Assembly: GCA_964473075.1 (NCBI GenBank)
Contig: CAYYMN010000006.1
Span: forward strand, 1 to 34,680
Direction of reading: 5' to 3'
Source of the DNA: Candidatus Woesearchaeota archaeon
GTDB taxonomy: Archaea > Nanobdellota > Nanobdellia > SCGC-AAA011-G17 > GW2011-AR17
DNA: 34,680 nucleotides
The number at the start of each line of letters is the position of its first letter. Position 1 is the first letter of the stretch. Below are positions 8,421-22,081 of the stretch, in pieces. Both the position numbers and the translations under genes were made by a program. The notes under the pieces are model-generated. The model made no database searches. It worked only from the letters and a program-made list of their open reading frames with translations, and was not told the origin of the DNA.

Positions 8421-8881
8421 TTTCTGTTGTATGAAGTCCAAATGGTTCGTTCATTTTTTTTCAGTAATACACCAATATCATGATATGAAAGTGATTTGCT
8501 CTCGTGGAGATATTTGACAATAGTTTTCATAGGAGGGATTTTATCAGAAAAGATGTCTAGAGGGATTTGAAGTTCTGATTTTAGGGATTTTAATTTTGAA
8601 GGATATTTCTTTTTTGTATTAGTATAAGTGTGCCAGAGATTTTTTTCGTTGCGTTTTAGAATAAGAGAAATTTCATGCAGGGTCAGATCTTTTTCTTCTT
8701 TAAGATATTTTACGATTGATTCCAATGGTGTGAGTTTATTATTAAAAATTGAAATGGGAATAAAGGGTTTGTTTAAATCATCTAATAGTTGCTGCAGGTA
8801 TTGTTTGATTTGGGTTTCATTAAGGTTTAGGCGAGTCTGCAAAGTAGTAAGAATCTCATTAGAATAATTCACCCCTGGCAT
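8417..8881 (-). CDS. tandem helix-turn-helix protein (two sigma-70 region 4 / LuxR-like HTH repeats)
   Basis: 154 aa with an internal duplication: IPISIFNNKLTPLESIVKYLKEEKDLTLHEISLILKRNEKNLWHTY versus IPLDIFSDKIPPMKTIVKYLHESKSLSYHDIGVLLKKNERTIWTSY. Its stop overlaps the start of the giant protein gene (ATGA at 8417-8420). Confidence 0.5.
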   Translation of the reverse strand: MPGVNYSNEILTTLQTRLNLNETQIKQYLQQLLDDLNKPFIPISIFNNKLTPLESIVKYLKEEKDLTLHEISLILKRNEKNLWHTYTNTKKKYPSKLKSLKSELQIPLDIFSDKIPPMKTIVKYLHESKSLSYHDIGVLLKKNERTIWTSYNRK

Positions 8882-8985
8882 TATACGCTTAATGTAAGGT
8901 TTATTTATAAATATTTGTATTTTTTACTTATATTGAATGTATTAACTACACTTTTTGTAAGGTTTTTATACTTACTCTTAATGTA

Positions 8986-9510: not shown

Positions 9511-11148
9511 ATGGAGCAAGAGATTAGAAAGTATGCTTTGCACAATGCTTTGAAGTATAATGGAAAGGCTAATTCTGGGGCTGTAGTCGGGCAAATATTT
9601 TCTACTCATCCAGATTTGAAAAAGAAGGCTGGGGAGATTATCAAACTTGTGAATGAGATTGTTTTGAAAGTGAATAAACTCAATGTTGAAGAGCAAAAAA
9701 AAGAATTAAATAAAATTGCACCAGAATTATTAGAAGAAAAAAAAGAAAGAAAGAAAAAAGAATTGCCAGAATTAAAAAATGTCAAAGGAAAGGTTATTAC
9801 AAGGCTGCCACCAGAACCATCAAAGTATATTCATTTAGGGCACGCAGTTTCGTTCATAATTAATTATCTTTATGCGAAGAAGTATAATGGAAAATGTGTT
9901 CTGAGGTTTGATGATACGAATCCAGAAAAAGCTAAGAAAGAATATTATGATGCTGTTGAAAAAGATTTGAAGTGGTTGAAAATAGATTATGATTCAAAAA
10001 TTATTGCTTCTGAGCACATGGAAGAATTCTATAAATATGCAGAGCAGATGATTAAAAATGATGAGGCTTATGTATGCTTTTGTGAGAAGGAAACAATGAG
10101 AAACTTTAGAGAGAAGAGTAAAATCTGTGATCATAGGCAACATAAAGAAAAAGAGAACTTGGAATTTTGGAAAGGGATGCTGAAGGGGAAGTTTAAGGAG
10201 GGAAAAGCTACATTAAGGCTCAAAGGGGATATGAGTAATGGAAATGCGGTCATGAGAGATCCAGTTTTATTCAGGATTGTAGAGAAAGCGCATGCATTAA
10301 CAGGGAAGAAATACAAGGTTTGGCCAATGTATGATTTTGAGACAGCTGTCGGGGAGGAAATTGCTGGGGTCACGCATATTTTCAGAAGCAATGAATTCGG
10401 AGAGATGAGAATAGAGCTACAAGATTATATCAAAGATTTATTGAAGTTCAAGAAGCAAGAAGTGTTGCAGTATGGGAGAGTTTCTGTGAATGGGTATGAG
10501 ATGCAAGGAAGGGTGATGAAAGAAAAAATTGAGAGGAAAGAAGTTGAAGGATGGGATGATCCGAGGTTGATGACGATTATGGCGCTGAGAAGGAGAGGAA
10601 TAGTACCGGAAACCTTTCATGAACTTGCATTAGAAGCTGGATTGTCTGCTACGCCGACGAATTTAGACTGGAGTGTGGTTGCGGCGATTAATAGGAAGAT
10701 TATTGATCCAATTGCAAAAAGGTATTTCTTTGTGAGGGATGCAAAAAAAATTAAAATTGAAAATTCTGTGAATAGTGTGAAGGTGTCTGTGCATCCAGAG
10801 AATAAAGAGTTAGGAATGAAGACAATTAAAATTGGAAAAGAGTTTTATGTGCAGGATGAGATCAAGAAAGGGATTGTATACAGATTCATGCATTTGTTTA
10901 ATTTTAAAGATGCAAAGTTTGTTTCTCAGGAGTATGAACAGAAGTTAGGGGCGAAAATTATTCATGCTGTGCCTGTTGAGGATTCAATTGATGTCCAAGT
11001 ATTAATGGATAATGGAAAAATAATCAAAGGAAAAGGAGAAGGGGCACTTAGAGATTTGAAAGAAGGAGAAATTGTGCAGTTTGAGAGGATGTTCTTTGCG
11101 CGATTGGATGATAAGAAGAAAATGTTGTTTGTGTATGCGCATGATTAA
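9511..11148 (+). CDS. gltX: glutamyl-tRNA synthetase, archaeal/eukaryal type
   Basis: It has the class I HIGH motif (HLGHAV) and an archaeal GluRS-like N-terminus (IRKYALHNALKYNGKANSGAVVG). The ATG at 9511 is preferred over the track start at 9460. Confidence 0.85.
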   Translation: MEQEIRKYALHNALKYNGKANSGAVVGQIFSTHPDLKKKAGEIIKLVNEIVLKVNKLNVEEQKKELNKIAPELLEEKKERKKKELPELKNVKGKVITRLPPEPSKYIHLGHAVSFIINYLYAKKYNGKCVLRFDDTNPEKAKKEYYDAVEKDLKWLKIDYDSKIIASEHMEEFYKYAEQMIKNDEAYVCFCEKETMRNFREKSKICDHRQHKEKENLEFWKGMLKGKFKEGKATLRLKGDMSNGNAVMRDPVLFRIVEKAHALTGKKYKVWPMYDFETAVGEEIAGVTHIFRSNEFGEMRIELQDYIKDLLKFKKQEVLQYGRVSVNGYEMQGRVMKEKIERKEVEGWDDPRLMTIMALRRRGIVPETFHELALEAGLSATPTNLDWSVVAAINRKIIDPIAKRYFFVRDAKKIKIENSVNSVKVSVHPENKELGMKTIKIGKEFYVQDEIKKGIVYRFMHLFNFKDAKFVSQEYEQKLGAKIIHAVPVEDSIDVQVLMDNGKIIKGKGEGALRDLKEGEIVQFERMFFARLDDKKKMLFVYAHD

Positions 11149-11810
11149 ATGATTTCTATTATTTCACCAATTTTTTTTGTACATTTGTATAAGCGAGCAG
11201 GTCTATGTGAAACACCTTCTGTAAATTCATTAGTTGGTTCAACCAATTCTAGACCAAAAATCTTTTTTCTAAAGTTTCTTTTGTCAAAAGGATGATTAAA
11301 TATTATTTCATATAGTCCCTGAAGCTGTGTTAGTGTGAACTTTTTTGATAGTAATTGGAATGCAATAGTAGTATATTCTAACTTCCATCTTAATCTTAAC
11401 AAAGCATAATCAAGGATCTTCTTATGATCAAATGCCAATTGAGGAAGACTATAAGCTGAGAACCATTTCGCTTCTGAGACATCAGTACTTCCTTTGATAG
11501 TTTGATTTTCAGAATTGATTAAAGCAAAATAAGCTACTGTAATTATTTGGCCTCTAGGATCTCTTTTAGGTTCACCAAAAGTATATAACTGTTCCAAGTA
11601 AATATCTTTTACACCAGTTTCTTCAACTAATTCTCTCTTTGCAGCTTCATCTAAGGATTCTTGTTCCTTAAGAAAACCACCTGGAAGAGCCCACATTCCT
11701 TTGAAAGGTTCAATTGCCCTTTTAATCAGTAAAACTTTTAGATCTTCATTTTGCACAGAAAAAATAATTATATCAACTGTTACAGATGGTTTGAAATAAT
11801 CTTTGGACAT
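11145..11810 (-). CDS. nrtR: NrtR-like Nudix hydrolase fused to a C-terminal winged-helix domain (putative NAD-regulon regulator)
   Basis: 221 aa. It has an intact Nudix box (GGFLKEQESLDEAAKRELVEETGV) followed by a ~90 aa C-terminal domain (LEYTTIAFQLL...FTLTQLQGLYEII...KRNFRKK) characteristic of NrtR. It sits beside the NAD genes. Confidence 0.7.
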   Translation of the reverse strand: MSKDYFKPSVTVDIIIFSVQNEDLKVLLIKRAIEPFKGMWALPGGFLKEQESLDEAAKRELVEETGVKDIYLEQLYTFGEPKRDPRGQIITVAYFALINSENQTIKGSTDVSEAKWFSAYSLPQLAFDHKKILDYALLRLRWKLEYTTIAFQLLSKKFTLTQLQGLYEIIFNHPFDKRNFRKKIFGLELVEPTNEFTEGVSHRPARLYKCTKKIGEIIEII

Positions 11811-11861
11811 AATGTTATTAAAACAATAAGCTATTTAAATGTTATTATAATTGTAAAAAAT

Positions 11862-13349
11862 ATGGTTACAATTTTATTCCCTGGTAGGCATCACATGCTT
11901 ACAAAGTTTCAATATAGTTATCTGAGAAGCATTATTGATCAAGGAATTAAAGGAAAAAAAGTGGATAGAATTATCTTTGCAATCACTTCAGCAGATCATG
12001 CAAATACAAGAAGAAATCCTATTCCATTATATCTAAGAGTATTAGCCATAGATAAATTTTCAAGAGACTTACCATGTGAAATTAAAATTTATGCCATTCC
12101 AGATGTCAAAAATACGAATAAATTTGCAGAATATTTATTACACCAAGTTGAATTCCAAGGAGAAGAAAAATTAACTCCAAAGAATACAATTTTAGCTTGT
12201 TCAACACCAGAGGTCATAAGATTATTTAAGAAATTGAAGTTTGAGAATCTTCCAGTAGAATTAATTAATGAAAAAAAAGAGAAGTATTCAACATTAAGAC
12301 CATTCGAAGTCATAAATCTTTTAGTAAAGGAAGGAAATAAATGGAGAACAGAAATAGAATGGAAAGAATATGCTTCTCAATCCTCACAGGATGTATATTT
12401 AGAATATAATTTGGGAACATGTATTATTGAATTGTTTAAAGATTCGGTAATCAGCGAGGATGCAAATATTACTGAGACCAGAGATTATAATAGTTATGCT
12501 CGAGGAATGGATCAAAATATTATTTTTAAATTTAATGATATAAAACCTTTTGTTGTAGAAGGAAAAATTGTGGATTCAGGATGTGGAACTGGTTCTTTAG
12601 TTTGGCATTTATCCCAGGAGTTCAAGGAATCAGATATAATTGGAATAGAGGCTACAAGAAATTTTTATGAGTACTGCAAATTGCAACAATATCCGAACCC
12701 GTTTGTTTTCTTCTACAGAAAAAATATTTTAGATCAAAATTTTAAGGAAAATACAATTAATACATTTATTTATTCTTCAGTCTTGCATGAAATCTATTCT
12801 TACATAGGTGTTGATGCTCTTAGAAAATTGTTAAAAAGAACTCATATACAATTAGCACACAAAGGAAGAATAGTAATAAGAGATGTTGTTGGACCCGAGA
12901 ATGGAAATAAAAAAGTATTGATGGAATTAAATGAAAAAGATGGGAAAAAAACAGGGGATATAAAGGTTCTTTCTACTTATGCAAAATTCTATAAATTTGT
13001 TAAGGATTTTATTCCAAGAAAAATTAAATTAAAAGAAATAAAAATTGAAAATAAGAAATTTATTGAACTCACATTAAAAGATGCTTATGAATATATGAGC
13101 AAGATGAATTATATTGACAACTGGCATAGTGAGATGCATGAAGAGTTTGGATTTTGGAGTTTTAGTGATTGGAAAAAGGAATTAAAAAAGGCTGGATTTG
13201 AAATAGTTTATGGCTCACACCCTTTCAAAAGTGATTATATTATTGAAAAAATGTATAAAGGAAAAGTTTCGTTATTTGAAAAAAGAGGTAAAAACTTAGT
13301 CCCATTTGATTATCCTCCAACAAATATGATACTCGCAGGAGAAAAATAA
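11862..13349 (+). CDS. fusion protein: NMNAT-like nucleotidyltransferase-fold N-domain plus class I SAM-dependent methyltransferase
   Basis: I take the start at the ATG at 11862 (MVTILFPGRHHMLTKFQ). The N-domain has a degenerate GRFxPxHxGH-like motif and a CSTPEVIR (SxTxxR-like) motif. The C-domain has SAM motif I (VDSGCGTGSL). Confidence 0.5.
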   Translation: MVTILFPGRHHMLTKFQYSYLRSIIDQGIKGKKVDRIIFAITSADHANTRRNPIPLYLRVLAIDKFSRDLPCEIKIYAIPDVKNTNKFAEYLLHQVEFQGEEKLTPKNTILACSTPEVIRLFKKLKFENLPVELINEKKEKYSTLRPFEVINLLVKEGNKWRTEIEWKEYASQSSQDVYLEYNLGTCIIELFKDSVISEDANITETRDYNSYARGMDQNIIFKFNDIKPFVVEGKIVDSGCGTGSLVWHLSQEFKESDIIGIEATRNFYEYCKLQQYPNPFVFFYRKNILDQNFKENTINTFIYSSVLHEIYSYIGVDALRKLLKRTHIQLAHKGRIVIRDVVGPENGNKKVLMELNEKDGKKTGDIKVLSTYAKFYKFVKDFIPRKIKLKEIKIENKKFIELTLKDAYEYMSKMNYIDNWHSEMHEEFGFWSFSDWKKELKKAGFEIVYGSHPFKSDYIIEKMYKGKVSLFEKRGKNLVPFDYPPTNMILAGEK

Positions 13350-13350
13350 A

Positions 13351-13797
13351 TTATTCATTAATCCAATTTTTAATTTGATTTGCAAGATCTTGTAAAGAGT
13401 AAACAATCTTTACTTCAGGTCTAATAAGACTAGTTTGAATTTCAACATCTTTTCTTCTTTTATAATTCGGATGTACACCTATGAATAAAATTTTACTATT
13501 TGCACTTTGTTTGCCAAGTTCATAAAGGGTTATTGGGCAAAGTGTTTCCTCAGTAAACCAAAAAGAAACTGCAGAAGCCTTATTCAAATGTTCATATTCC
13601 CATTTAATTTGCTCTTGTTCAAGATTAGTATTATTTTCTGAATAAAATCTTCTTCTGGGATTAAGTAGTGTTAAGTTCAAATCCTTTAGTAAAAAAACAA
13701 ACTCTTGTTGCCAATTACTACATCCACTAATTCCACCAGCTAAAAATAAAGACTTTTCTTTTCCGGAGAAAATTTCAGGACATTCGATATATTTCAT
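13351..13797 (-). CDS. nucleoside 2-deoxyribosyltransferase-like protein
   Basis: 148 aa with LFLAGGISG...W near the N-terminus and a LYELGK motif carrying a candidate catalytic Glu. Its start forms an ATGA overlap with the nadK stop (13794-13797). Confidence 0.45.
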   Translation of the reverse strand: MKYIECPEIFSGKEKSLFLAGGISGCSNWQQEFVFLLKDLNLTLLNPRRRFYSENNTNLEQEQIKWEYEHLNKASAVSFWFTEETLCPITLYELGKQSANSKILFIGVHPNYKRRKDVEIQTSLIRPEVKIVYSLQDLANQIKNWINE

Positions 13798-14564
13798 ACT
13801 ACCACCACCTTTAAAGGTTTATCAGAAAGTTTTATTTCAACTTGATCCCCAGTATTAAAATCATATATGGAATCATTAATTGCAACTATACTACCAGAAT
13901 CACGAGTGGATTCAATGGAGAGCTTTTCGTCAACAAGTATTTCACCATTTAATATTGAAGGAATAAAAATTCTTTCACCAAAATAAGGTTCTCTTATTAT
14001 AAAACTAAGCTTTTTTTCGGAATAATGAAATGGTTTTCCACCAGCTGAAAGAAACCAAGCTTTAGAACCAGAGCCTGTAGAAACGAGAACTCCAGAACTT
14101 CTTTGTTCTTCAATTTTATCTTTATAATTGATCTTATATCTAGAGGTATGAAATTGAGAGGCTGCTCCAATATAAACTTCGTTGATTGCTTTCTCAGGAA
14201 GAATTTTATTATTTAATTTAATTTCTGCTCTTTGTCTTTCAATAATATTAAAATTATTTTGTAATAGTTTTTGGAGTTTATCAATTTCTTCTATTCTAAT
14301 TGAAGTTAATGCACCTTCACTAGTTTCGGGATTGGAATTTATACCAAAAATTAATGAATCTTCAATTAAATGAGCAGCTTTTACAAAGGTACCATCACCA
14401 CCAATAGTAATAACTAAATCAATTTCTAGTAAATCTTCTTTTTTTAGATTATTAAAAGCAATTATTTTTATTTTACTTCCTGGGAAAAAAAGATTTATTT
14501 TTTCAATTACCTCAGACCCTAAATGGAGATTATTTTTTAATAAAATTGCGATTTGTTCAAACAT
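13794..14564 (-). CDS. nadK: NAD kinase
   Basis: It has the GGDGT motif (VITIGGDGTFVKAAH) and an NEVYIG motif. The ATG at 14564 is preceded by GGAGGG. The track start at 14576 is a TTG. Confidence 0.8.
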   Translation of the reverse strand: MFEQIAILLKNNLHLGSEVIEKINLFFPGSKIKIIAFNNLKKEDLLEIDLVITIGGDGTFVKAAHLIEDSLIFGINSNPETSEGALTSIRIEEIDKLQKLLQNNFNIIERQRAEIKLNNKILPEKAINEVYIGAASQFHTSRYKINYKDKIEEQRSSGVLVSTGSGSKAWFLSAGGKPFHYSEKKLSFIIREPYFGERIFIPSILNGEILVDEKLSIESTRDSGSIVAINDSIYDFNTGDQVEIKLSDKPLKVVVV

Positions 14565-15495
14565 TTTTCCCTCCAATTTTTGTAAATTGCCTTTGATTTT
14601 TATAACTATCTACTATGGAATCTAACAGATTTAAACTTGAAATAACTGATTCTTTGGCCATACAAACATCATCCCCAAGCATAAAAGTTCTATAGCCCAT
14701 TAACAAAGAACCATAAACATCAGTTATATCCGTGCATGAAGGTTCTAAACTTGTAGCCAAAGAATTAAATATTCTAGATGCAAGAATAGCATTAGGATCT
14801 TTGCTTAAAATTTCATGCATTGCAGCAACAATCAAATGAGGTCTTGAAACTTCAACAAATAAATCTCCTCTTGCAGTTAATAGTCTTACATTCTCTGACC
14901 ATTCATTTCTAACATAAGACAAACCTTTAGGGGATTCTATCTTTGCAACAAGATTCGAATCAGGAACAATTTTTTTAAAATTAGTAATATCAATTGAAGA
15001 TTCTACAAAAGAAAGCATATAATTTTTTAGGCCTAATTTTTCTGCAGCTTCGATATATCTTTTATCAGTATCAGTCAGAAAACCATTTATCAACAATGAA
15101 GGATCTGGAATATTCAATGATTCCCCTGGACCAATTACTCTTCTAGGACCTTCTAAGAAAATTAATTTATTTTCATTTACAGCAACTAATGTAGCACATT
15201 CTTGACCATCATGAAAATATGCAGTAGTAGGAACATTGACTTGAATTGGATGGCTGACTTCAACTTCTGTGAAAGGTGGAACCCAATAACCTTTGACTCT
15301 AAGCTGACGAGCTTTAAGATCTATCCAAAGTTCTTTTGGGGAACAAATTTCTTTTAATCTACTCAATAAATCTTCTAAAGAATCTTTTATAGGCATAACT
15401 GTATTTAATCTAACTCCAGAGACTAATGGATGTGATACAACCTCTTTAATGAAAGGTGCATAAGGGGGGATTGTTACAATTGCATTTGGTTTCAT
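14557..15495 (-). CDS. truncated, divergent pyruvate-kinase-like TIM-barrel protein (A plus short B domain, no C-terminal domain)
   Basis: 312 aa that aligns by eye to PK motifs: AIVTIPP/SGVRLNT (GMNVARLNFSHG region), WIDLKARQLR (DTKGPEIR), LTDTDKRYI (TEKD), VAKIESPKGL (KIEN), TARGDLFVEV (ARGDLGVEI) and PSCTDITDV...FMLGDD (PTRAE..DV..MLSGE). Confidence 0.55.
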   Translation of the reverse strand: MKPNAIVTIPPYAPFIKEVVSHPLVSGVRLNTVMPIKDSLEDLLSRLKEICSPKELWIDLKARQLRVKGYWVPPFTEVEVSHPIQVNVPTTAYFHDGQECATLVAVNENKLIFLEGPRRVIGPGESLNIPDPSLLINGFLTDTDKRYIEAAEKLGLKNYMLSFVESSIDITNFKKIVPDSNLVAKIESPKGLSYVRNEWSENVRLLTARGDLFVEVSRPHLIVAAMHEILSKDPNAILASRIFNSLATSLEPSCTDITDVYGSLLMGYRTFMLGDDVCMAKESVISSLNLLDSIVDSYKNQRQFTKIGGKNV

Positions 15496-15522
15496 TTTTT
15501 TACCTCCAAAAAATAAAAAAAA

Positions 15523-16476
15523 TTATGGTGTAAGCAGCTTACTTTTCCTCGAAGCTTGAACACCAATTACTTGCGACTTTGTTGAGCCTGCATTAGGGAC
15601 ATAACGAATGGATTGCAAAACAGCATTCATATCTGCAGGATCTTGCCTTGCAGAAAGGTTTTTAGTATAATCACCAAATTGACCAAAATGTTTTGCAATA
15701 ATTCCCATTGCAACATCTACAGCTCTTTCCGCAGAAGGAAGTTCGATAATTTTCTCTACACCAAAAACTGATTCCCATTGTTCACGGATAATACTTTCCT
15801 CTTGATCCCGAGAATAAGGTTTTCTAAGCATATAGATATTGAATTTTCTATTAAGCTCATGCCACATAGTTCTTGCGTCTAAATCAGATTCTTGGATGTC
15901 TCCGATTAATGTACTTACTTGATCAGAACTTACTTTTTCATAGAAGCCTTCATCACCAAACATAATCAAGAAAGGTGATCTAGCATTAGGCATTCTTACA
16001 TGGGTGTTCATAAAATGGCCAAACAATTCATAAGTCTCTCTGCCTTGACCTCCTCCACCACCTTCTGCTGCAAGAGCTCTAATATGGTCATCTAAAACTG
16101 GACCCTTTCCAAAACTATTTATTTGTAATGGATAGCTATCACAGTTTGCATCACCAATTGCACAGAAAGAAATTTCTAAATCTGGTTTATACTGACTCAA
16201 TGTTTGATAAAGCAATGGAAGCCTATCAAATATTTCTGCTGGCCAGTGTGCCATTGAACCGGTTACATCAATTCCAACAACAATTGGATTTTCACTTGCA
16301 GTCTCAAGAATTTTATTCAATGGACTAACTAAAGACCAGTCCGGATCTGTTCTTCTGCTGTAGGTTCTAGGTTTTGCAGTTGATGCATTTTTGTCTAAGT
16401 AAGCTCGTCTTGCAGGATCATAATTATATGCCTGCGGTTTTTTCCAAGTCGATGTGTCATTTCCCCAACTATACAT
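15523..16476 (-). CDS. von Willebrand factor A (vWA) domain protein
   Basis: It has a MIDAS-like motif, VVGIDVTGSM (a DxTxS variant of DxSxS), in a Rossmann-like context. The ATG at 16476 is preceded by GGAGG. The track start at 16500 is a GTG. Confidence 0.6.
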   Translation of the reverse strand: MYSWGNDTSTWKKPQAYNYDPARRAYLDKNASTAKPRTYSRRTDPDWSLVSPLNKILETASENPIVVGIDVTGSMAHWPAEIFDRLPLLYQTLSQYKPDLEISFCAIGDANCDSYPLQINSFGKGPVLDDHIRALAAEGGGGGQGRETYELFGHFMNTHVRMPNARSPFLIMFGDEGFYEKVSSDQVSTLIGDIQESDLDARTMWHELNRKFNIYMLRKPYSRDQEESIIREQWESVFGVEKIIELPSAERAVDVAMGIIAKHFGQFGDYTKNLSARQDPADMNAVLQSIRYVPNAGSTKSQVIGVQASRKSKLLTP

Positions 16477-16530
16477 TTTATTCCTCCTGATACAGCTCAC
16501 GCTATATCGATCTTCATTATTTTTTTCTGT

Positions 16531-17295
16531 TTAGGCAGAATGACGTCTTCCAAACACATTCTGTCTTATGTCTGACAAGCGCCCAACCAAATCAGTTTTT
16601 TCCCAATTAGGGCGCAAGATGGGATCATTTTGAACTAATTCTTCACAAAAGTCAATAATAGGTTTTGGAACATGTTGAGGGAAAGTTCTACCAATTGCAT
16701 CCCCACCCAAAGCATAAATCATTACAATTCCTGCACCATACAAATCAGATTCAGGAATTGGAGGAGAACCAGCTTTTAATTCTGGAGCTGCAAAAGCATC
16801 TGTATAACCAATTGCTTTAGTAGAATCAATGGGTTTGTTTGCAGAGAGACCAAAGTCAATTAATACAGCATTATGAATTTTTGGTTGTAAAATAATATTT
16901 TGTGGCTTAACATCAGAATGAATTATACCATTTGCATGCAAGTAATGGAGAACTCCAAATAAACGTTGCATTATCCAACAAACATCTTCGGGATGAATGG
17001 CTTTATGTTTCTCAATTACTTTATCTAAAGTTTTTCCCTCAATAAAACTCATAGCAATGGCATAACTACCATCACCAACAGCAAAATAATCTTTCATTGA
17101 AGGAAGAGAATAATGACCCAGATTCCAAAGTAGTCTTGCTTCTCTACGAAGTAATTCAGCATCGACAGGAGTAATATTAATATTTTGTTTTAGGCAAACT
17201 CTTTCTTCAAGTAAAATATGTTTAGCCTCATAAGTTCTTGCAAAACCACCTTCACCAATTTGTCTTAAAATTGTATAGTTTCCAATAGTTGTCAT
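16531..17295 (-). CDS. Hanks-type serine/threonine protein kinase, catalytic domain only
   Basis: It has the G-loop GEGGFARTY, VCLK, the catalytic loop HSDVKPQNIIL, DFGLS and an APE-like FAAPE. Its start forms an ATGA overlap with the stop of the NMNAT-like gene (17292-17295). Confidence 0.85.
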   Translation of the reverse strand: MTTIGNYTILRQIGEGGFARTYEAKHILLEERVCLKQNINITPVDAELLRREARLLWNLGHYSLPSMKDYFAVGDGSYAIAMSFIEGKTLDKVIEKHKAIHPEDVCWIMQRLFGVLHYLHANGIIHSDVKPQNIILQPKIHNAVLIDFGLSANKPIDSTKAIGYTDAFAAPELKAGSPPIPESDLYGAGIVMIYALGGDAIGRTFPQHVPKPIIDFCEELVQNDPILRPNWEKTDLVGRLSDIRQNVFGRRHSA

Positions 17296-17909
17296 TTTTT
17301 GCCTCCTATTGCTTGCATTTCTTCAGAAGTATTTTTTGGGCTAGAATAATCTGAAACTAGAAGAGATAATGTGTATAAACCAAACTCATTTTGAAATCTT
17401 TCAACAAGATGATTTGATTTTAAGTAATCAAAAACTTCCTTAGGAACTAAACCATTCCAATCAATATTCATAGCCATTGCAATTCGAACATCTGTACCCG
17501 AAAGAGGAACCCTTTTTTCTAAAGGAATAAATTCTAATGGATGCCTGCAATCATATTGTTCAGATAAAAGTTCTCGAACATAATCATTCCCAGAAACAAA
17601 TAGATCTAAATTTCCAAATTGAGAAATAATTTCTTGTTTCCATCTTTGTCCATCATTATATTTAGGGATATGACCAAAATCTGGAATAAACCTAAAAGAA
17701 TAATTTGAGAATCTTGAAGATAGGAAAGAATCAATCATAGATTTAACTTCTTCTGCAGTAAATGGATTTCTCTCGTCATATCTGTTGATACTACCAATTC
17801 CAATAATCAAATGGTCAGAAATTTCACAGAGAGATTCTAACATAGCTGCTGAACTATTGTGCAAAGGTCTAAACCTTCCAATTACTCCAATCCTAGAGTA
17901 TAGTTTCAT
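17292..17909 (-). CDS. nicotinamide/nicotinate mononucleotide adenylyltransferase-like protein (archaeal NadM type, variant motif)
   Basis: 205 aa. IGVIGRFRPLHNSS occupies the position of GRFQPFHxGH, and SGTDVRIAM occupies the position of the SGTxIR motif. Its start forms an ATGA overlap with the Nudix gene stop (17906-17909). Confidence 0.55.
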   Translation of the reverse strand: MKLYSRIGVIGRFRPLHNSSAAMLESLCEISDHLIIGIGSINRYDERNPFTAEEVKSMIDSFLSSRFSNYSFRFIPDFGHIPKYNDGQRWKQEIISQFGNLDLFVSGNDYVRELLSEQYDCRHPLEFIPLEKRVPLSGTDVRIAMAMNIDWNGLVPKEVFDYLKSNHLVERFQNEFGLYTLSLLVSDYSSPKNTSEEMQAIGGKK

Positions 17910-18334
17910 TTTCCCTCCTTGTATTTTAAATATTCATCAATGATTCTACAATGATCAAAAACTAGAGAATTTTTTAGAGCTCTAACTTCATCAAGTGAGT
18001 AAAGCTTTGCTTCCTTTGCATCATCACCAGCCTTTAGAATTCCAGAACCAGTTGCAATAAAAGTCACTGAAACCATATGATATCTTGGATCTCTTGTTGG
18101 AGAAGAAAATACACACAAAGGATGTTCAGGAGTTTGAATTTTTACTTCCAATCCAGTTTCTTCAAGTGATTCTTTAATTGCATTTTCTTCCAAAGTTAAA
18201 CCATACTCTGCATGTCCCCCTGGAAGAGCCAAACCTAATGGATGATATTTTCTTTCAATTAAAATAATTCCATCTTTAGTTCCATCATTGTATTCAATTA
18301 TTATGTCTGTAGATAAAAATGGAAGTCTATGCAT
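17906..18334 (-). CDS. Nudix hydrolase
   Basis: It has the Nudix box GGHAEYGLTLEENAIKESLEETGLEV. The ATG at 18334 is preceded by GGAGGT. The longer track ORF overlaps the 3' end of nadE. Confidence 0.75.
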   Translation of the reverse strand: MHRLPFLSTDIIIEYNDGTKDGIILIERKYHPLGLALPGGHAEYGLTLEENAIKESLEETGLEVKIQTPEHPLCVFSSPTRDPRYHMVSVTFIATGSGILKAGDDAKEAKLYSLDEVRALKNSLVFDHCRIIDEYLKYKEGK

Positions 18335-19238
18335 TTTGAGACCTCCTATATAACAAAGAAACAGGTGCAATAGGCGGATGTATAATTCTTGCTTTTGCAT
18401 TAGCAATATCATGGCGTCTTAAAACATCATCAACCATTGCTTCTACAGAAGAAAATTTTGCAGTTTTGAACAATGAAGAATATCTCTGAGAATCAGTTCC
18501 ACCTAGGATTTGAACTTGAGGATTGACAATTAATTTTTCTCTAGAGAAGTTTTGATAAACTCCTTCTAAGACTAACTCTACAAAATCATAACTATATCCG
18601 AGATCTCCAAAGTCAGTTTGATTAAGTTCTAAACCTGCAGTTGGTTCTCTTCTTGCAATATTCTCAAATCCTAAATATGAAGCAATAGCTTTTACATGGC
18701 GCTTAGGAAGATTTCCAATTGGACTAATGTGAACAGCACCATCACCAAATAAAGTATAGTAACCAATCCCAAAGTCTTCGTCTCTATTTCCTGTTCCTGA
18801 TAGAACTTTATTTTCAGTTGCGGCTTTTGTAGAGAGTACATTTGCTCTTATTCTAGAAATCATATTACCCTTGTCATAAGAATTTTGAAAGGATTCTGGA
18901 TTTGTGAATCTATGAGCTTCAACCAAAGGTTCCAGATTCTGAACTTCGTATCTTATTCCTAATTTTTCTGCAATTTCAATCCCATCTTTCGTATCATTTT
19001 CATTGTTAACTTTGGAGGGAAGGATGTAACCCACTAATTCTAAACTTGTACTATGAGAAACATTGTATAAATCAAAAGCTCTCTTAATAATCGCCACAGT
19101 AGTTGTTGAATCAACACCACCAGAGAGACCAATAACACAACCTGTACTATTTCTTTGAATACATGTATTGACAACGAAATCTCCAATTTCTTGAATAACT
19201 TGTTCAAGATTTATTTCGGATAAAATTATTTTTGACAT
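18327..19238 (-). CDS. nadE: NH3-dependent NAD+ synthetase
   Basis: It has the PP-loop SGGVDS (VIGLSGGVDSTTT). At 303 aa it has no glutaminase domain. Confidence 0.85.
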   Translation of the reverse strand: MSKIILSEINLEQVIQEIGDFVVNTCIQRNSTGCVIGLSGGVDSTTTVAIIKRAFDLYNVSHSTSLELVGYILPSKVNNENDTKDGIEIAEKLGIRYEVQNLEPLVEAHRFTNPESFQNSYDKGNMISRIRANVLSTKAATENKVLSGTGNRDEDFGIGYYTLFGDGAVHISPIGNLPKRHVKAIASYLGFENIARREPTAGLELNQTDFGDLGYSYDFVELVLEGVYQNFSREKLIVNPQVQILGGTDSQRYSSLFKTAKFSSVEAMVDDVLRRHDIANAKARIIHPPIAPVSLLYRRSQNA

Positions 19239-19239
19239 T

Positions 19240-19953
19240 TTAGAACCTCCTCAATTTTGTTTCTAAACCTGCGATTACATCATCAGTAGAAACTAATTTT
19301 GCACCAGCTTGAACCATTTCTTCCAAAGCTTTTTTAGTGCTTTCAGGAAAAACTCCTTTGATTGCATCGCTCACAACATAAGTTTGAATTCCTAAATTTT
19401 GCATTCCTAAAACTGCTGCTTTCACACAATAATCTGTTGCAACTCCATAAACAATAGCCGATGAAACTTTTGCTCTTTCTAAAAAAGGTTTAACATTTGG
19501 ATTTGAGAATACATCATAATTCTGCTTTTCAAAATAGATTCCTCTTTGAGGGAGTTCATTCAATTTTTTTAAGCCTTCATTAATTAATTCATCATCAATC
19601 TCAGATCCTGAAAAATTGGGGATATAAAACGCAGTAGAGTAACCATCTAATGAACCAATACTTGGAGCTCTTGATAAAATAGTTTGATAAATCCTCCATT
19701 GACCTGTAGTTCCATCCATACAGTGATCTGGAAAAGGACCACCATTGCGACTTAATTCACTTTCAACATCACTAAATTCTTTTGTACCAAAATGTCTATC
19801 AACAGAACCTAAAACAAAAATATTATTCTGTCTTGCATAATCAGTAAGTCTCAATAGATTTGGTTTTATCGATTCTGCATCAGATACATATAATGCCCCA
19901 TTTGCATCCATAAAATCTCTTTGTGTGTCTTCATCCCAGAAGATTGTTTTCAT
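19240..19953 (-). CDS. pncA: nicotinamidase (isochorismatase superfamily)
   Basis: It has the FPDHCMDGTTG metal/substrate motif typical of PncA and the catalytic Cys context GVATDYCV. The ATG at 19953 is preceded by GGAGGT. Confidence 0.8.
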   Translation of the reverse strand: MKTIFWDEDTQRDFMDANGALYVSDAESIKPNLLRLTDYARQNNIFVLGSVDRHFGTKEFSDVESELSRNGGPFPDHCMDGTTGQWRIYQTILSRAPSIGSLDGYSTAFYIPNFSGSEIDDELINEGLKKLNELPQRGIYFEKQNYDVFSNPNVKPFLERAKVSSAIVYGVATDYCVKAAVLGMQNLGIQTYVVSDAIKGVFPESTKKALEEMVQAGAKLVSTDDVIAGLETKLRRF

Positions 19954-19954
19954 T

Positions 19955-21289
19955 TTATTGACCTCCATACTGTTTTGATAATGATTCAGTAAGTGTGATC
20001 AAACCTTCAGAAGGAATTGCTTCGTATTTGCTTTGAAAACCAATTCTTTTTTTATCCTCTGGCAACATACTAACTTGATGCTGAGTATATTCTCTAATTT
20101 TTAGAAGAGATCTTCTTTGAGAAACTCTTATTCCATTTTCTACAACTTTTTCTAATAGTGGAGTCCCATTAGGAATTACTTCGGATTCCAAAGCAATAAT
20201 ATCCCTAATAAAAATTCCATCCTCATCCGAAATTCTATAGACTTGTTTTTTTCCAGGATATGTTTTTTTGCATGCGGATAATTTTATTTTTCCACCATCT
20301 TCATCTTCAACAAGTTTGTAAACTCCTGAAATTGCTGCAACAGGTTTTCCAGTAATATTTTCTGTACCAACACCATAACCAGAAACTGAATGACCTTGAA
20401 GTGCTTCTATTTTGTATTCATTTAAATCATTAGTCGCAAATATTCCAACATAAGAAAGACCTTGTTCATCTAAAATTTTTCTTACTAAATCTGATTTTTC
20501 AGCTAATGGATCTGAATCTATTCTTACTGATTTTAATCTAAACCCTTTTTCTTCTAATTCTTTTCCAACAATTGCAGCATTTCTAGCACCTTTTTCTACA
20601 TCATAAGTATCTATCAACAAAGTTGAGTTTAAAGGAAAAGTTTTTGCGTAGGCTCTAAATGCTTCAAGTTCATCTTTAAAACTCATAACAAAACTATGTG
20701 CATGAGTCCCAGCAATTGGAATATTATATTCAATTCCAGCTTTGACATTGCTAGTTCCTGAAAAGCCAGCAATATATGAAGCTCTTGCACCTAACATTGC
20801 AGCATCTTCGCCTTGAGCTCTTCTTAATCCAAATTCAACAACAGGTGCACCTCTTGCTGCATTAACAATTCTATTTGCCTTTGAAGCAACCATTGTCTGA
20901 AAGTTAATTATATTAAGAAGTGTGGATTCCAAGAACTGAGCTTGTGGAAGTGTTGAAGTTACACGAAGTAAAGGCATATTTTCTGTTATTAATGTACCTT
21001 CTTTTACAGCATAAATTTCTCCTTCAAATTTAAAATCTTTCAAAGTTTGTAAAAATTCTTCTGGTAAAGGAGTTCTTGTTCTAAGTTCTTCAATATCTTC
21101 TTCTGAAAAGCTTAAACTAGTAGCATAATTGATTGCATCTTCAATTCCACAGGCAATAAAATAATTCCAATCATCCGGTAATTTTCGGATAAATAAATCA
21201 AAAGTAGCTTTGCCACACTTAGCATTATCTTCATAAGCAGCATTCATTGTTAATTGATATAAATCAGTAAGCATAGTTTTGTTCTTCAT
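19955..21289 (-). CDS. pncB: nicotinate phosphoribosyltransferase
   Basis: 444 aa with the N-terminus MLTDLYQLTMNAAY typical of NAPRTase. GGAGG lies upstream. Confidence 0.85.
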   Translation of the reverse strand: MKNKTMLTDLYQLTMNAAYEDNAKCGKATFDLFIRKLPDDWNYFIACGIEDAINYATSLSFSEEDIEELRTRTPLPEEFLQTLKDFKFEGEIYAVKEGTLITENMPLLRVTSTLPQAQFLESTLLNIINFQTMVASKANRIVNAARGAPVVEFGLRRAQGEDAAMLGARASYIAGFSGTSNVKAGIEYNIPIAGTHAHSFVMSFKDELEAFRAYAKTFPLNSTLLIDTYDVEKGARNAAIVGKELEEKGFRLKSVRIDSDPLAEKSDLVRKILDEQGLSYVGIFATNDLNEYKIEALQGHSVSGYGVGTENITGKPVAAISGVYKLVEDEDGGKIKLSACKKTYPGKKQVYRISDEDGIFIRDIIALESEVIPNGTPLLEKVVENGIRVSQRRSLLKIREYTQHQVSMLPEDKKRIGFQSKYEAIPSEGLITLTESLSKQYGGQ

Positions 21290-21307
21290 TGTGTATCCTC
21301 CAAATTG

Positions 21308-21324
21308 AGTGTCTTTCTTACACT
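21308..21324. promoter_or_regulatory. candidate NrtR box 1 (AGTGT-N7-ACACT)
   Basis: AGTGTCTTTCTTACACT has perfect 5+5 inverted arms. It lies 19-35 nt upstream of the pncB ATG. Confidence 0.5.
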
Positions 21325-21390
21325 ATCTTGCCCCAAAAAAAATCCTTGGGTGATTTTGAAGTTTTGTTTTTTATATTTCATTTTTCTTTT

Positions 21391-21407
21391 AGTGTTTTTC
21401 TTACACC
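21391..21407. promoter_or_regulatory. candidate NrtR box 2 (AGTGT-N7-ACACC)
   Basis: AGTGTTTTTCTTACACC matches box 1 at 15 of 17 positions. It lies just upstream (in the pncB direction) of an AAATATAAAAAA TATA-like tract. Confidence 0.45.
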
Positions 21408-21412
21408 TTCTT

Positions 21413-21429
21413 AGTGTTAATACTACACT
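21413..21429. promoter_or_regulatory. candidate NrtR box 3 (AGTGT-N7-ACACT)
   Basis: AGTGTTAATACTACACT has perfect arms. It abuts the TTATATATAAAG TATA-like tract that faces the M50 protease gene, and its centre is 22 bp from box 2. Confidence 0.5.
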
Positions 21430-21493
21430 TATATATAAAGCTTTCGAAAGGAAAGGAATAAAGTTTAAAAAGGAAAAAACTAAAAGCTGTTTT

Positions 21494-22081
21494 ATGAGAA
21501 TAAAATTTTCAAAGACCGAGATACAAGATCTGGGAAAAGCATGGTTGTTTATCTCAATAGCCTTTGGAATAGTACTCTCAGGAGGGATTTTAGGAATTTC
21601 GTTATTGAAAAGTTTTATTCTCGCTGCGTTAACAGTAGGAACAGGATTCTTGTTGCATGAATTAGGGCATAAAATTGTTGCACAAAGGTATGGGTGCTTT
21701 GCAGAGTTCAGGGCGGATAATTTTATGTTGTTCCTGGCAGTTTTAACTTCATTCCTAGGGATTGTGTTTGCAGCGCCTGGAGCAGTAATGATTGCAGGGC
21801 ATATTAGTCGCGAGAGGAATGGGAAGATTTCGGTTGCTGGTCCTTTAGTGAATATTATTTTAGGGTTGATATTTTTAGCTCTAAGTTATATTGTAACTCA
21901 AGGATTCGTTAATGAGTTATTCATGTTTGGATTCATGGTAAATTCATGGTTAGCATTGTTTAATATGATACCTTTATGGATTTTAGATGGAAAGAAAGTT
22001 TTGGATTGGAATAAAGGGGTTTATTTTGTAATATTGTTGGTTGCAATAGGGTTGTTTGTAAAAGGGATTGTTTTGTTTTAA
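21494..22081 (+). CDS. site-2 protease family (M50) membrane metalloprotease
   Basis: It has HELGHK (HExxH) and a NMIPLWILDG (NxxPxxxLDG) motif in a polytopic membrane protein. The ATG at 21494 is preferred over the track start at 21305. Confidence 0.75.
   Translation: MRIKFSKTEIQDLGKAWLFISIAFGIVLSGGILGISLLKSFILAALTVGTGFLLHELGHKIVAQRYGCFAEFRADNFMLFLAVLTSFLGIVFAAPGAVMIAGHISRERNGKISVAGPLVNIILGLIFLALSYIVTQGFVNELFMFGFMVNSWLALFNMIPLWILDGKKVLDWNKGVYFVILLVAIGLFVKGIVLF

Follow-up and report, generated by a model that had tools for sequence, protein, structure and literature searches.

Candidate NrtR operators at the promoter of a predicted NAD salvage operon in a Woesearchaeota archaeon

Upstream of pncB, the nicotinate phosphoribosyltransferase gene of a Candidatus Woesearchaeota archaeon, three palindromes of the form AGTGT-N7-ACAC resemble the operators of the bacterial NAD repressor NrtR. 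This raises the question of which protein reads them, and whether a repressor of bacterial type could act at an archaeal promoter. We analysed a stretch of 34,680 nucleotides, called the window here, together with the whole genome (977 kb, 33% G+C, 94.7% complete) and its relatives. Archaeal marks on the contig are an archaeal-type GluRS (NF003169), L7Ae and TATA promoters, and among named NrtR loci the nearest are those of Candidatus Woesearchaeota. We conclude from sequence comparison that the three boxes are most probably operators for an NrtR repressor encoded 9.5 kb away (11810-11145).

Palindromes between pncB and the M50 protease gene

The genes and boxes discussed in this section are the following.

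19955-21289, minus strand: pncB, nicotinate phosphoribosyltransferase (NF006696, 503 bits; PF17767, PF17956, PF04095)
13351-19968, minus strand, co-directional with pncB: rest of the NAD island (Pfam and NCBIfam matches)
21308-21324, minus strand: box 1, candidate proximal NrtR operator, AGTGTCTTTCTTACACT, exact match
21391-21407, minus strand: box 2, candidate second NrtR operator, AGTGTTTTTCTTACACC, one mismatch to AGTGT-N7-ACACT
21413-21429, minus strand: box 3, candidate distal NrtR operator, AGTGTTAATACTACACT, exact AGTGT-N7-ACACT
20949-20965, strand not assigned: fourth, weaker box, AGTGTTGAAGTTACACG, within the pncB coding region

In the NAD island, pncB is followed by pncA, nadE, a Nudix gene, an NMNAT-like gene, a Ser/Thr kinase gene, an unknown gene, a PK-barrel-like gene, nadK and an NDT-like gene. 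The tight gene spacing suggests that pncB and the rest of the island form a single operon. NadA was not found in the genome, so NAD seems to come from salvage only.

A preliminary description of this DNA had located the three boxes by eye. Its coordinates hold when re-read from the sequence, as do the identity of boxes 1 and 2 at 15 of 17 positions and the centre-to-centre spacing of 22 bp for boxes 2 and 3. For boxes 1 and 2 the corresponding spacing is 83 bp. NrtR operators are described as 21-bp palindromes with a conserved GT-N7-AC core (PMC2330246), the same core that the preliminary description had named. Palindromes with this core are present three times upstream of pncB, as AGTGT-N7-ACAC(T/C).

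The motif is rare in its strict form and clustered. With at most one mismatch, AGTGT-N7-ACACT has five matches in the window against 0.57 expected, and none of 100 window shuffles reached five. Genome-wide (977 kb) the same loose pattern gives 15 matches and a control pattern 14, which is chance level, so that the signal resides in the clustering. Four of the six copies of GTGT-N7-ACAC in the 977 kb genome fall inside a single interval of 480 bp at pncB (20949-21429), as do all four genomic copies of AGTGT-N7-ACAC.

The three boxes also lead the ranking by a symmetric weight matrix that was trained solely on sites from other archaeal genomes and is thus out-of-sample for the genome under study. 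In a scan of 974,077 positions, box 1 ranks first (18.6), box 3 second (17.3) and box 2 third (17.1), while the next score is 14.0. The fourth box had been overlooked in the by-eye search for further copies, which had correctly found two degenerate relatives elsewhere in the window. It scores 11.2 (rank 14), its position is not conserved among the relatives compared, and it may be an auxiliary site or a chance match. Together with matches at 19102-19118 (9.6) and 17270-17286 (10.6) it makes three weaker sites in the NAD operon; for its 8 kb, the density of such matches in the genome predicts about 0.3. The three may be low-affinity auxiliary sites or chance. Other top matches in the genome (C64:980, C60:978, C9:14521 and others) were rejected as regulon members and treated as background, since they lie within coding regions or at gene ends. 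The matrix matches in this genome thus added no other member to the regulon.

Promoter geometry at pncB and nrtR

The signals around the boxes and at the regulator gene are listed below.

21432-21446, minus strand: BRE and TATA box of the pncB promoter (cgaaagc-TTTATATA), fitting the genome's own BRE/TATA logo
21297-21301, minus strand: Shine-Dalgarno sequence GGAGG of pncB, 7 nt before the ATG at 21289, read from the sequence
21332-21350, minus strand: hairpin CCCAAGGA / UUU / UUUUUGGG in the pncB leader, between boxes 2 and 1
21464-21471, plus strand: TATA box TTTAAAAA of the divergent M50 protease gene, exactly 30 nt before its leaderless ATG at 21494
11145-11810, minus strand: nrtR, 221 aa (PF21906 and PF00293), the sole NrtR_WHD protein found in the genome
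11811-11827, minus strand: degenerate operator (ATTGTTTTAATAACATT in gene orientation), filling the space between the nrtR TATA box and the leaderless ATG at 11810
11832-11839, minus strand: nrtR TATA box TTTAAATA, 29 nt before the ATG and 4 bp from the box

Measured across the whole genome, the spacing between the first T of TTTAWAWA and the ATG that begins a long open reading frame shows a sharp peak at 30 nt, with 118 of 328 cases at 29-31 nt. Most transcripts thus appear to be leaderless, and start sites can be calibrated. The BRE in the aligned promoters of this genome has A at -4 and -3. From the leaderless TATA-to-ATG distance of 30, the pncB start is predicted near 21409. Box 3 begins 2 bp downstream of the TATA box and covers about -20 to -4, between TATA and the predicted start, and box 2 covers about +3 to +19, just past it. 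Box 1 is placed in the 5' leader at about +86 to +102 and ends 6 nt upstream of GGAGG, which stands at +109 and is followed by the ATG at +121. The earlier placement of box 1 between the likely start and the Shine-Dalgarno sequence fits these positions. With a 120-nt leader that contains GGAGG, pncB is an exception to the leaderless rule, and its orthologues are exceptions too.

Two TATA-like tracts had been named in this interval. The tract TATATATA does adjoin box 3, as described, but its assignment to the plus strand was wrong: read in that direction it misses the BRE/TATA consensus of the genome, and it is the minus-strand BRE/TATA of pncB. The minus-strand tract below box 2 (about 21370-21379) did not stand as the main pncB promoter, as it is off consensus, with no match to TTTAWAWA, and has no equivalent in relatives. 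For the M50 protease, the N-terminus aligns from residue 1 with the orthologues of two genomes of the same genus (G006 and G007), which carry TATA boxes of their own. The M50 protease gene has its own promoter and is outside the regulon. A scan of 21200-21560 for promoters and terminators of bacterial type gave nothing relevant, as expected for an archaeon.

Archaeal repressors usually block the recruitment of RNA polymerase from a site directly after the TATA box, and MDR1, LrpA, Phr and TrmB are examples. The predicted arrangement at pncB is alike in that the operators lie between TATA and the start or over the start, and in that a regulator of bacterial type meets a eukaryote-like basal machinery. 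The difference is in the protein families, which are others.

The pncB leader as a whole folds with z = -2.4. Stable hairpins are found at the equivalent place, between the distal and proximal boxes, in eight of ten pncB leaders examined, with z of -2.2 to -6.0 and unrelated stem sequences. Those of relatives are at 1399-1436 of locus L031, at 1531-1570 of locus L113 and in loci L112, L029, L123, L127 and L132, and in about five leaders the hairpin is followed by a terminator-like T-run. An Rfam search of the intergenic region and of the pncB loci of nine relatives gave no riboswitch or known RNA, with only a tRNA elsewhere. The leader hairpin may be an attenuator or an mRNA stabiliser.

One of the two degenerate relatives adjoins the start of nrtR, where it had been noticed before (11811-11827). 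The box is weak, scoring about 7.8 when calculated by hand with the out-of-sample matrix. Among 121 promoters of leaderless type in the genome, nrtR alone has TGT-N7-ACA between TATA and ATG, and an equally placed box is found at the nrtR promoters of seven relatives (G003, G006, G007, G011, G016, G022 and G024). This conserved placement supports the site as an autoregulatory operator, and nrtR is predicted to control its own expression through it. The palindromic sequence ATTTAAAT (window 11832-11864), which includes the nrtR TATA box, lies 28-30 nt from two divergent ATGs, that of nrtR at 11810 (minus) and that of an NMNAT-like/methyltransferase fusion gene at 11862 (plus); it may serve as a bidirectional TATA for both genes.

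The other relative, AATGTATTAACTACACT at 8936-8952, is present as described, but an operator role is unsupported. Its score of 10.6 is within the tail of the genome background. About 24 bp downstream of it comes the TATA box (about 8903-8912, minus) of a 154-aa gene starting at 8881, and a place upstream rather than downstream of TATA is unsuited to repression. We therefore rejected this site.

The NrtR-like protein and the distribution of its motif

Profile searches agree with the earlier view of the 221 aa protein as NrtR-like. It has a NUDIX domain (PF00293, 2.2e-22, residues 13-134) and an NrtR winged-helix domain (PF21906, 4.1e-24, residues 150-209), both above cut-offs, and the nrtR product is the one match of the PF21906 profile in the genome. 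The NCBIfam equivalog of ADPR-responsive repressors (NF050029) matches residues 3-210 with 186.7 bits (E = 4.6e-55), below its cut-off of 400 bits, so the protein is a family member by domain architecture and not that curated equivalog. In the PDB its best relative is the arabinose regulator BtAraR (5e-48), followed by Shewanella oneidensis NrtR (SoNrtR, 7e-37), both aligned over the full length.

The BtAraR structures (PDB 5BS6, 5DD4, 5DDG, 5DEQ; PMC4666351) offer a direct comparison for DNA reading. The crystal duplex contains AGTGT-TACTTTT-ACACC, an AGTGT-N7-ACACC arrangement, and Lys179, Arg180 (intercalating), Asn181 and Lys184 together with Lys204 and Arg205 of the wing are reported to 'define GTGT' (PMC4666351). 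BtAraR residues Asp178 to Lys184 are identical to the major-groove segment DKRNFRK of the archaeal protein. All 12 archaeal NrtRs compared have D176, K177, R178, N179, F180, R181 and K182 without change, and likewise the wing residue Arg203, which corresponds to BtAraR Arg205; BtAraR Lys204 is His202 here. The residues of the recognition helix are compatible with the GTGT motif. AraR is also alike in having tandem sites, 3 bp or about 42 nt apart, where the spacings here are 22 bp and 83 bp. AraR differs in that it senses L-arabinose, controls sugar genes and has lost the nucleotide cleft (Gly89, Leu67, Phe36); in the archaeal protein, whose gene lies among NAD genes, Arg86 is retained and the Nudix box is intact.

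SoNrtR (PDB 3GZ5, 3GZ6, 3GZ8) shares the two-domain fold and is an NAD salvage repressor released by ADP-ribose, a property that would be common to both proteins if the effector predicted here is correct. Its ADP-ribose-contacting residue Arg98 is kept as Arg86, which is Gly in the arabinose-sensing AraR. The two differ in the recognition helix, QGKSFRR in SoNrtR and DKRNFRK in the archaeal protein, and in the Nudix box, which is degenerate in SoNrtR (Lys76; Leu67 in AraR) and has Glu64 in the archaeal protein. There the signature GX5EX7REUXEEXGU is complete, as G45-x5-E51-x7-R59 E60 L V E63 E64 T G V. Arg86 and the intact Nudix box would fit a nucleotide ligand and possibly catalysis. The archaeal NrtR may still hydrolyse ADP-ribose, like the cyanobacterial NuhA (PMC2330246). 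The effector is a prediction, since the closest solved relative is the arabinose-responsive AraR and not an ADP-ribose-responsive NrtR.

Phylogenetic footprinting, which had been suggested for related genomes, shows that the promoters of pncB and nrtR carry the boxes in several archaeal genera, in step with the presence of NrtR. In the family, full-length NrtR is present in 12 of 24 genomes and pncB in six of 24. Upstream of five of the six pncB genes stands cgaaagg-TTTATATA, then 2-7 bp and an AGTGTA-N5-TACA(C/A)T box; in the sixth genome (G022) pncB is inside an operon. A second box, either 22-23 bp further on or adjoining the Shine-Dalgarno sequence, is found in four of the five (G011, G014, G015 and G016), while the pncB of G020 has the TATA-adjacent box only. 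In all, more than 12 genomes have cgaaagg-TTTATATA and a box after it at pncB. Those with a box right after the pncB TATA include G011, G014, G015, G016, G020, G217 and G220, and a box adjoining the Shine-Dalgarno sequence also occurs in G011, G015, G016, G217, G264 and G367. Five genomes of different families in the class (1.2-1.6 Mb each) have one or two exact AGTGT-N7-ACACT sites apiece, six in total. The distance to nrtR is 1.3-10 kb for each of the six. Five belong to promoters with the same TATA-box architecture, before pncB, pncA or a Nudix gene; the sixth (G373) is in unannotated sequence.

In a sample of the phylum, NrtR_WHD is present in 68 of 401 genomes and pncB in 32, with NrtR in 26 of the 32 pncB-positive genomes. 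As a presence/absence control we compared 20 further pncB upstream regions, namely those of 14 NrtR-positive genomes, five NrtR-negative genomes and G330. AGTGTA-N5-TACACT boxes precede pncB in 13 of the 14 NrtR-positive genomes, the fourteenth having pncB inside an operon, and in none of the five NrtR-negative, pncB-positive genomes, which are all of one genus and count as one lineage for that reason. At pncB, the presence of the motif thus tracks the presence of NrtR, with the negatives drawn from that single genus. The only apparent exceptions to this co-occurrence are G014 (C56, L027; 85% complete) and G330 (C51, L123; 92%), where pncB has two good boxes each and NrtR was not found in the assembly. 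In both, nrtR is probably unassembled.

For bacteria, we compared 80 NrtR loci, 73 of them bacterial and from many phyla. The motif has 71 copies in these loci, most of them 30-100 bp upstream of nrtR and often paired at 22-27 bp, and the control has nine. Taking archaea and bacteria together, tandem boxes at NrtR loci are repeatedly seen 21-27 bp apart. The spacing between boxes gives a nominal phasing signal of 10-10.5 bp, which comes from the tandem spacing of about 22 bp; for distances of at least 30 bp phasing is not significant (p about 0.1), and the genomes are related.

Alternative readings and a model of NAD-responsive control

The boxes lie in an intergenic region that pncB shares with the M50 gene, and in G006 and G007 they again adjoin M50. 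The NrtR operators could therefore control the M50 gene, or both promoters, rather than pncB alone. We consider this improbable. The M50 gene has a consensus TATA box of its own at exactly the calibrated distance from its ATG, this TATA lies 35 bp downstream of the closest edge of any box, and the orientation of the BRE (cgaaagc before TTTATATA) faces pncB. Beyond this genus the boxes accompany pncB and not M50, and the linkage of boxes and M50 within the genus follows from synteny. A function of the palindromes as RNA hairpins in the pncB leader, where they would affect stability or translation instead of being DNA operators, is very unlikely. Transcription is predicted to run through boxes 1 and 2, each of which forms a 5-bp stem, and the leader-wide z value is in line with such structure; against this, box 3 and all nrtR boxes lie upstream of the predicted start. 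What is conserved is the AGTGT/ACACT sequence itself, beyond pairing, with no compensatory variants seen in the relatives compared, and a protein of the NrtR family contacts the same motif base by base in the crystal (PMC4666351).

That a different transcription factor, co-occurring with NAD genes, uses the boxes as its operators would account for G014 and G330, which carry boxes with no NrtR detected. Both assemblies are incomplete, however. The genome under study has a single NrtR_WHD protein, the motif tracks NrtR, the recognition residues fit GTGT, and in bacteria of many phyla the sites adjoin nrtR itself, so we give very little weight to another factor. Chance palindromes or a functionless local duplication seem hardly credible. 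Boxes 1 and 2 share even the spacer (15/17), which suggests duplication, and the genome-wide counts with one mismatch equal the control; yet the boxes take ranks 1-3 with a matrix from other genomes, and their positions are conserved across families in which the flanking sequence has diverged.

With NrtR as the most probable reader of the boxes, we infer the following course of binding, repression and release around the predicted transcription start. NrtR dimers would use the recognition helix DKRNFRK and the wing to bind AGTGT-N7-ACAC. On box 3, just past TATA, and on box 2, over the predicted start, NrtR would allow TBP and TFB to bind and would block the recruitment of RNA polymerase or promoter opening. 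Box 1, beside the ribosome-binding site, could be an additional downstream roadblock or a cooperative anchor. When NAD is consumed, ADP-ribose formed in its breakdown, or a related NAD metabolite, would be bound by the Nudix domain, and NrtR would leave the DNA. This would switch on the nicotinamide/nicotinate salvage operon from pncB, pncA and nadE to nadK, which is apparently the only NAD route of the organism. NrtR would also damp its own leaderless promoter through the weaker box.

Bacterial NrtR regulons of NAD salvage include a site before pncB in Roseiflexus, a site before pncB-nrtR-pncA in Blastopirellula and a site between divergent nrtR and pncB in Vibrio (Rodionov et al. 2008, PMC2330246). 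The archaeal system has in common with them a regulator of Nudix and winged-helix domains, a 21-bp palindrome with a GT-N7-AC core, pncB, pncA and nadE as targets, the location of nrtR near its targets and, as predicted here, autoregulation. The differences are the DPANN host and operators that are set on TATA/BRE and on leaderless or leadered transcripts instead of sigma-70 -35/-10 elements. The archaeal unit also adds nadK, a kinase cassette and an NDT-like gene. No Nudix-related regulator in Archaea is described in the literature searched, where NrtR is described from bacteria only; one archaeal Nudix study that mentions NrtR did not find an HTH-bearing Nudix protein in Sulfolobus. The bacterial NrtR switch in an archaeal promoter geometry is a new case and no new mechanism.

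In the tree, the NrtR of this genome belongs to a clade of 14 Woesearchaeota members (SH-aLRT 96). At least two further archaeal NrtR groups are interleaved with bacterial clades, and the backbone of the tree is without resolution. The interleaved archaeal groups and the patchy distribution (17%) suggest that NrtR was transferred from bacteria to archaea, with the direction read from the distribution only. G006 and G007 are two species of the same genus in which a mere 700 bp or so separates nrtR from M50 (L008 2170-2860; L010 2170-2880), and this short interval keeps a TATA box and two to three NrtR boxes. The boxes precede an unknown 152-aa ORF in G006 and a truncated nadE fragment (profile positions 118-217 of 242) in G007. 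The 9.5 kb NAD island is thus absent or decayed in both genomes, with the regulator and operators retained.

A wider reading is possible but doubtful. NrtR and its operator may have crossed from Bacteria to DPANN archaea as a unit, present in about 17% of the sampled genomes of the phylum, and may act there on TBP, TFB and RNA polymerase as a bifunctional ADP-ribose pyrophosphatase and repressor that senses NAD turnover in host-dependent, salvage-only archaea. The hairpin between the operators, often with a T-run, would then be a second, attenuation-like layer. We know of no such layer in bacterial NrtR regulons.

Few regulator-operator pairs can be predicted with comparable support in DPANN archaea, which are mostly uncultured. 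The locus offers a concrete and testable regulon of NrtR, three boxes and one predicted operon. The pathway served is that of an essential cofactor, and the organism seemingly lives on salvaged niacin. The locus also comes with a calibrated promoter model for this genome, in which the distance from TATA to ATG is 30 nt and transcripts are mostly leaderless. A bacterial metabolite-sensing repressor would have kept the same DNA code after its move into an archaeal promoter architecture. If the transfer reading is true, NrtR would provide host-dependent, salvage-only archaea with a sensor of NAD turnover.
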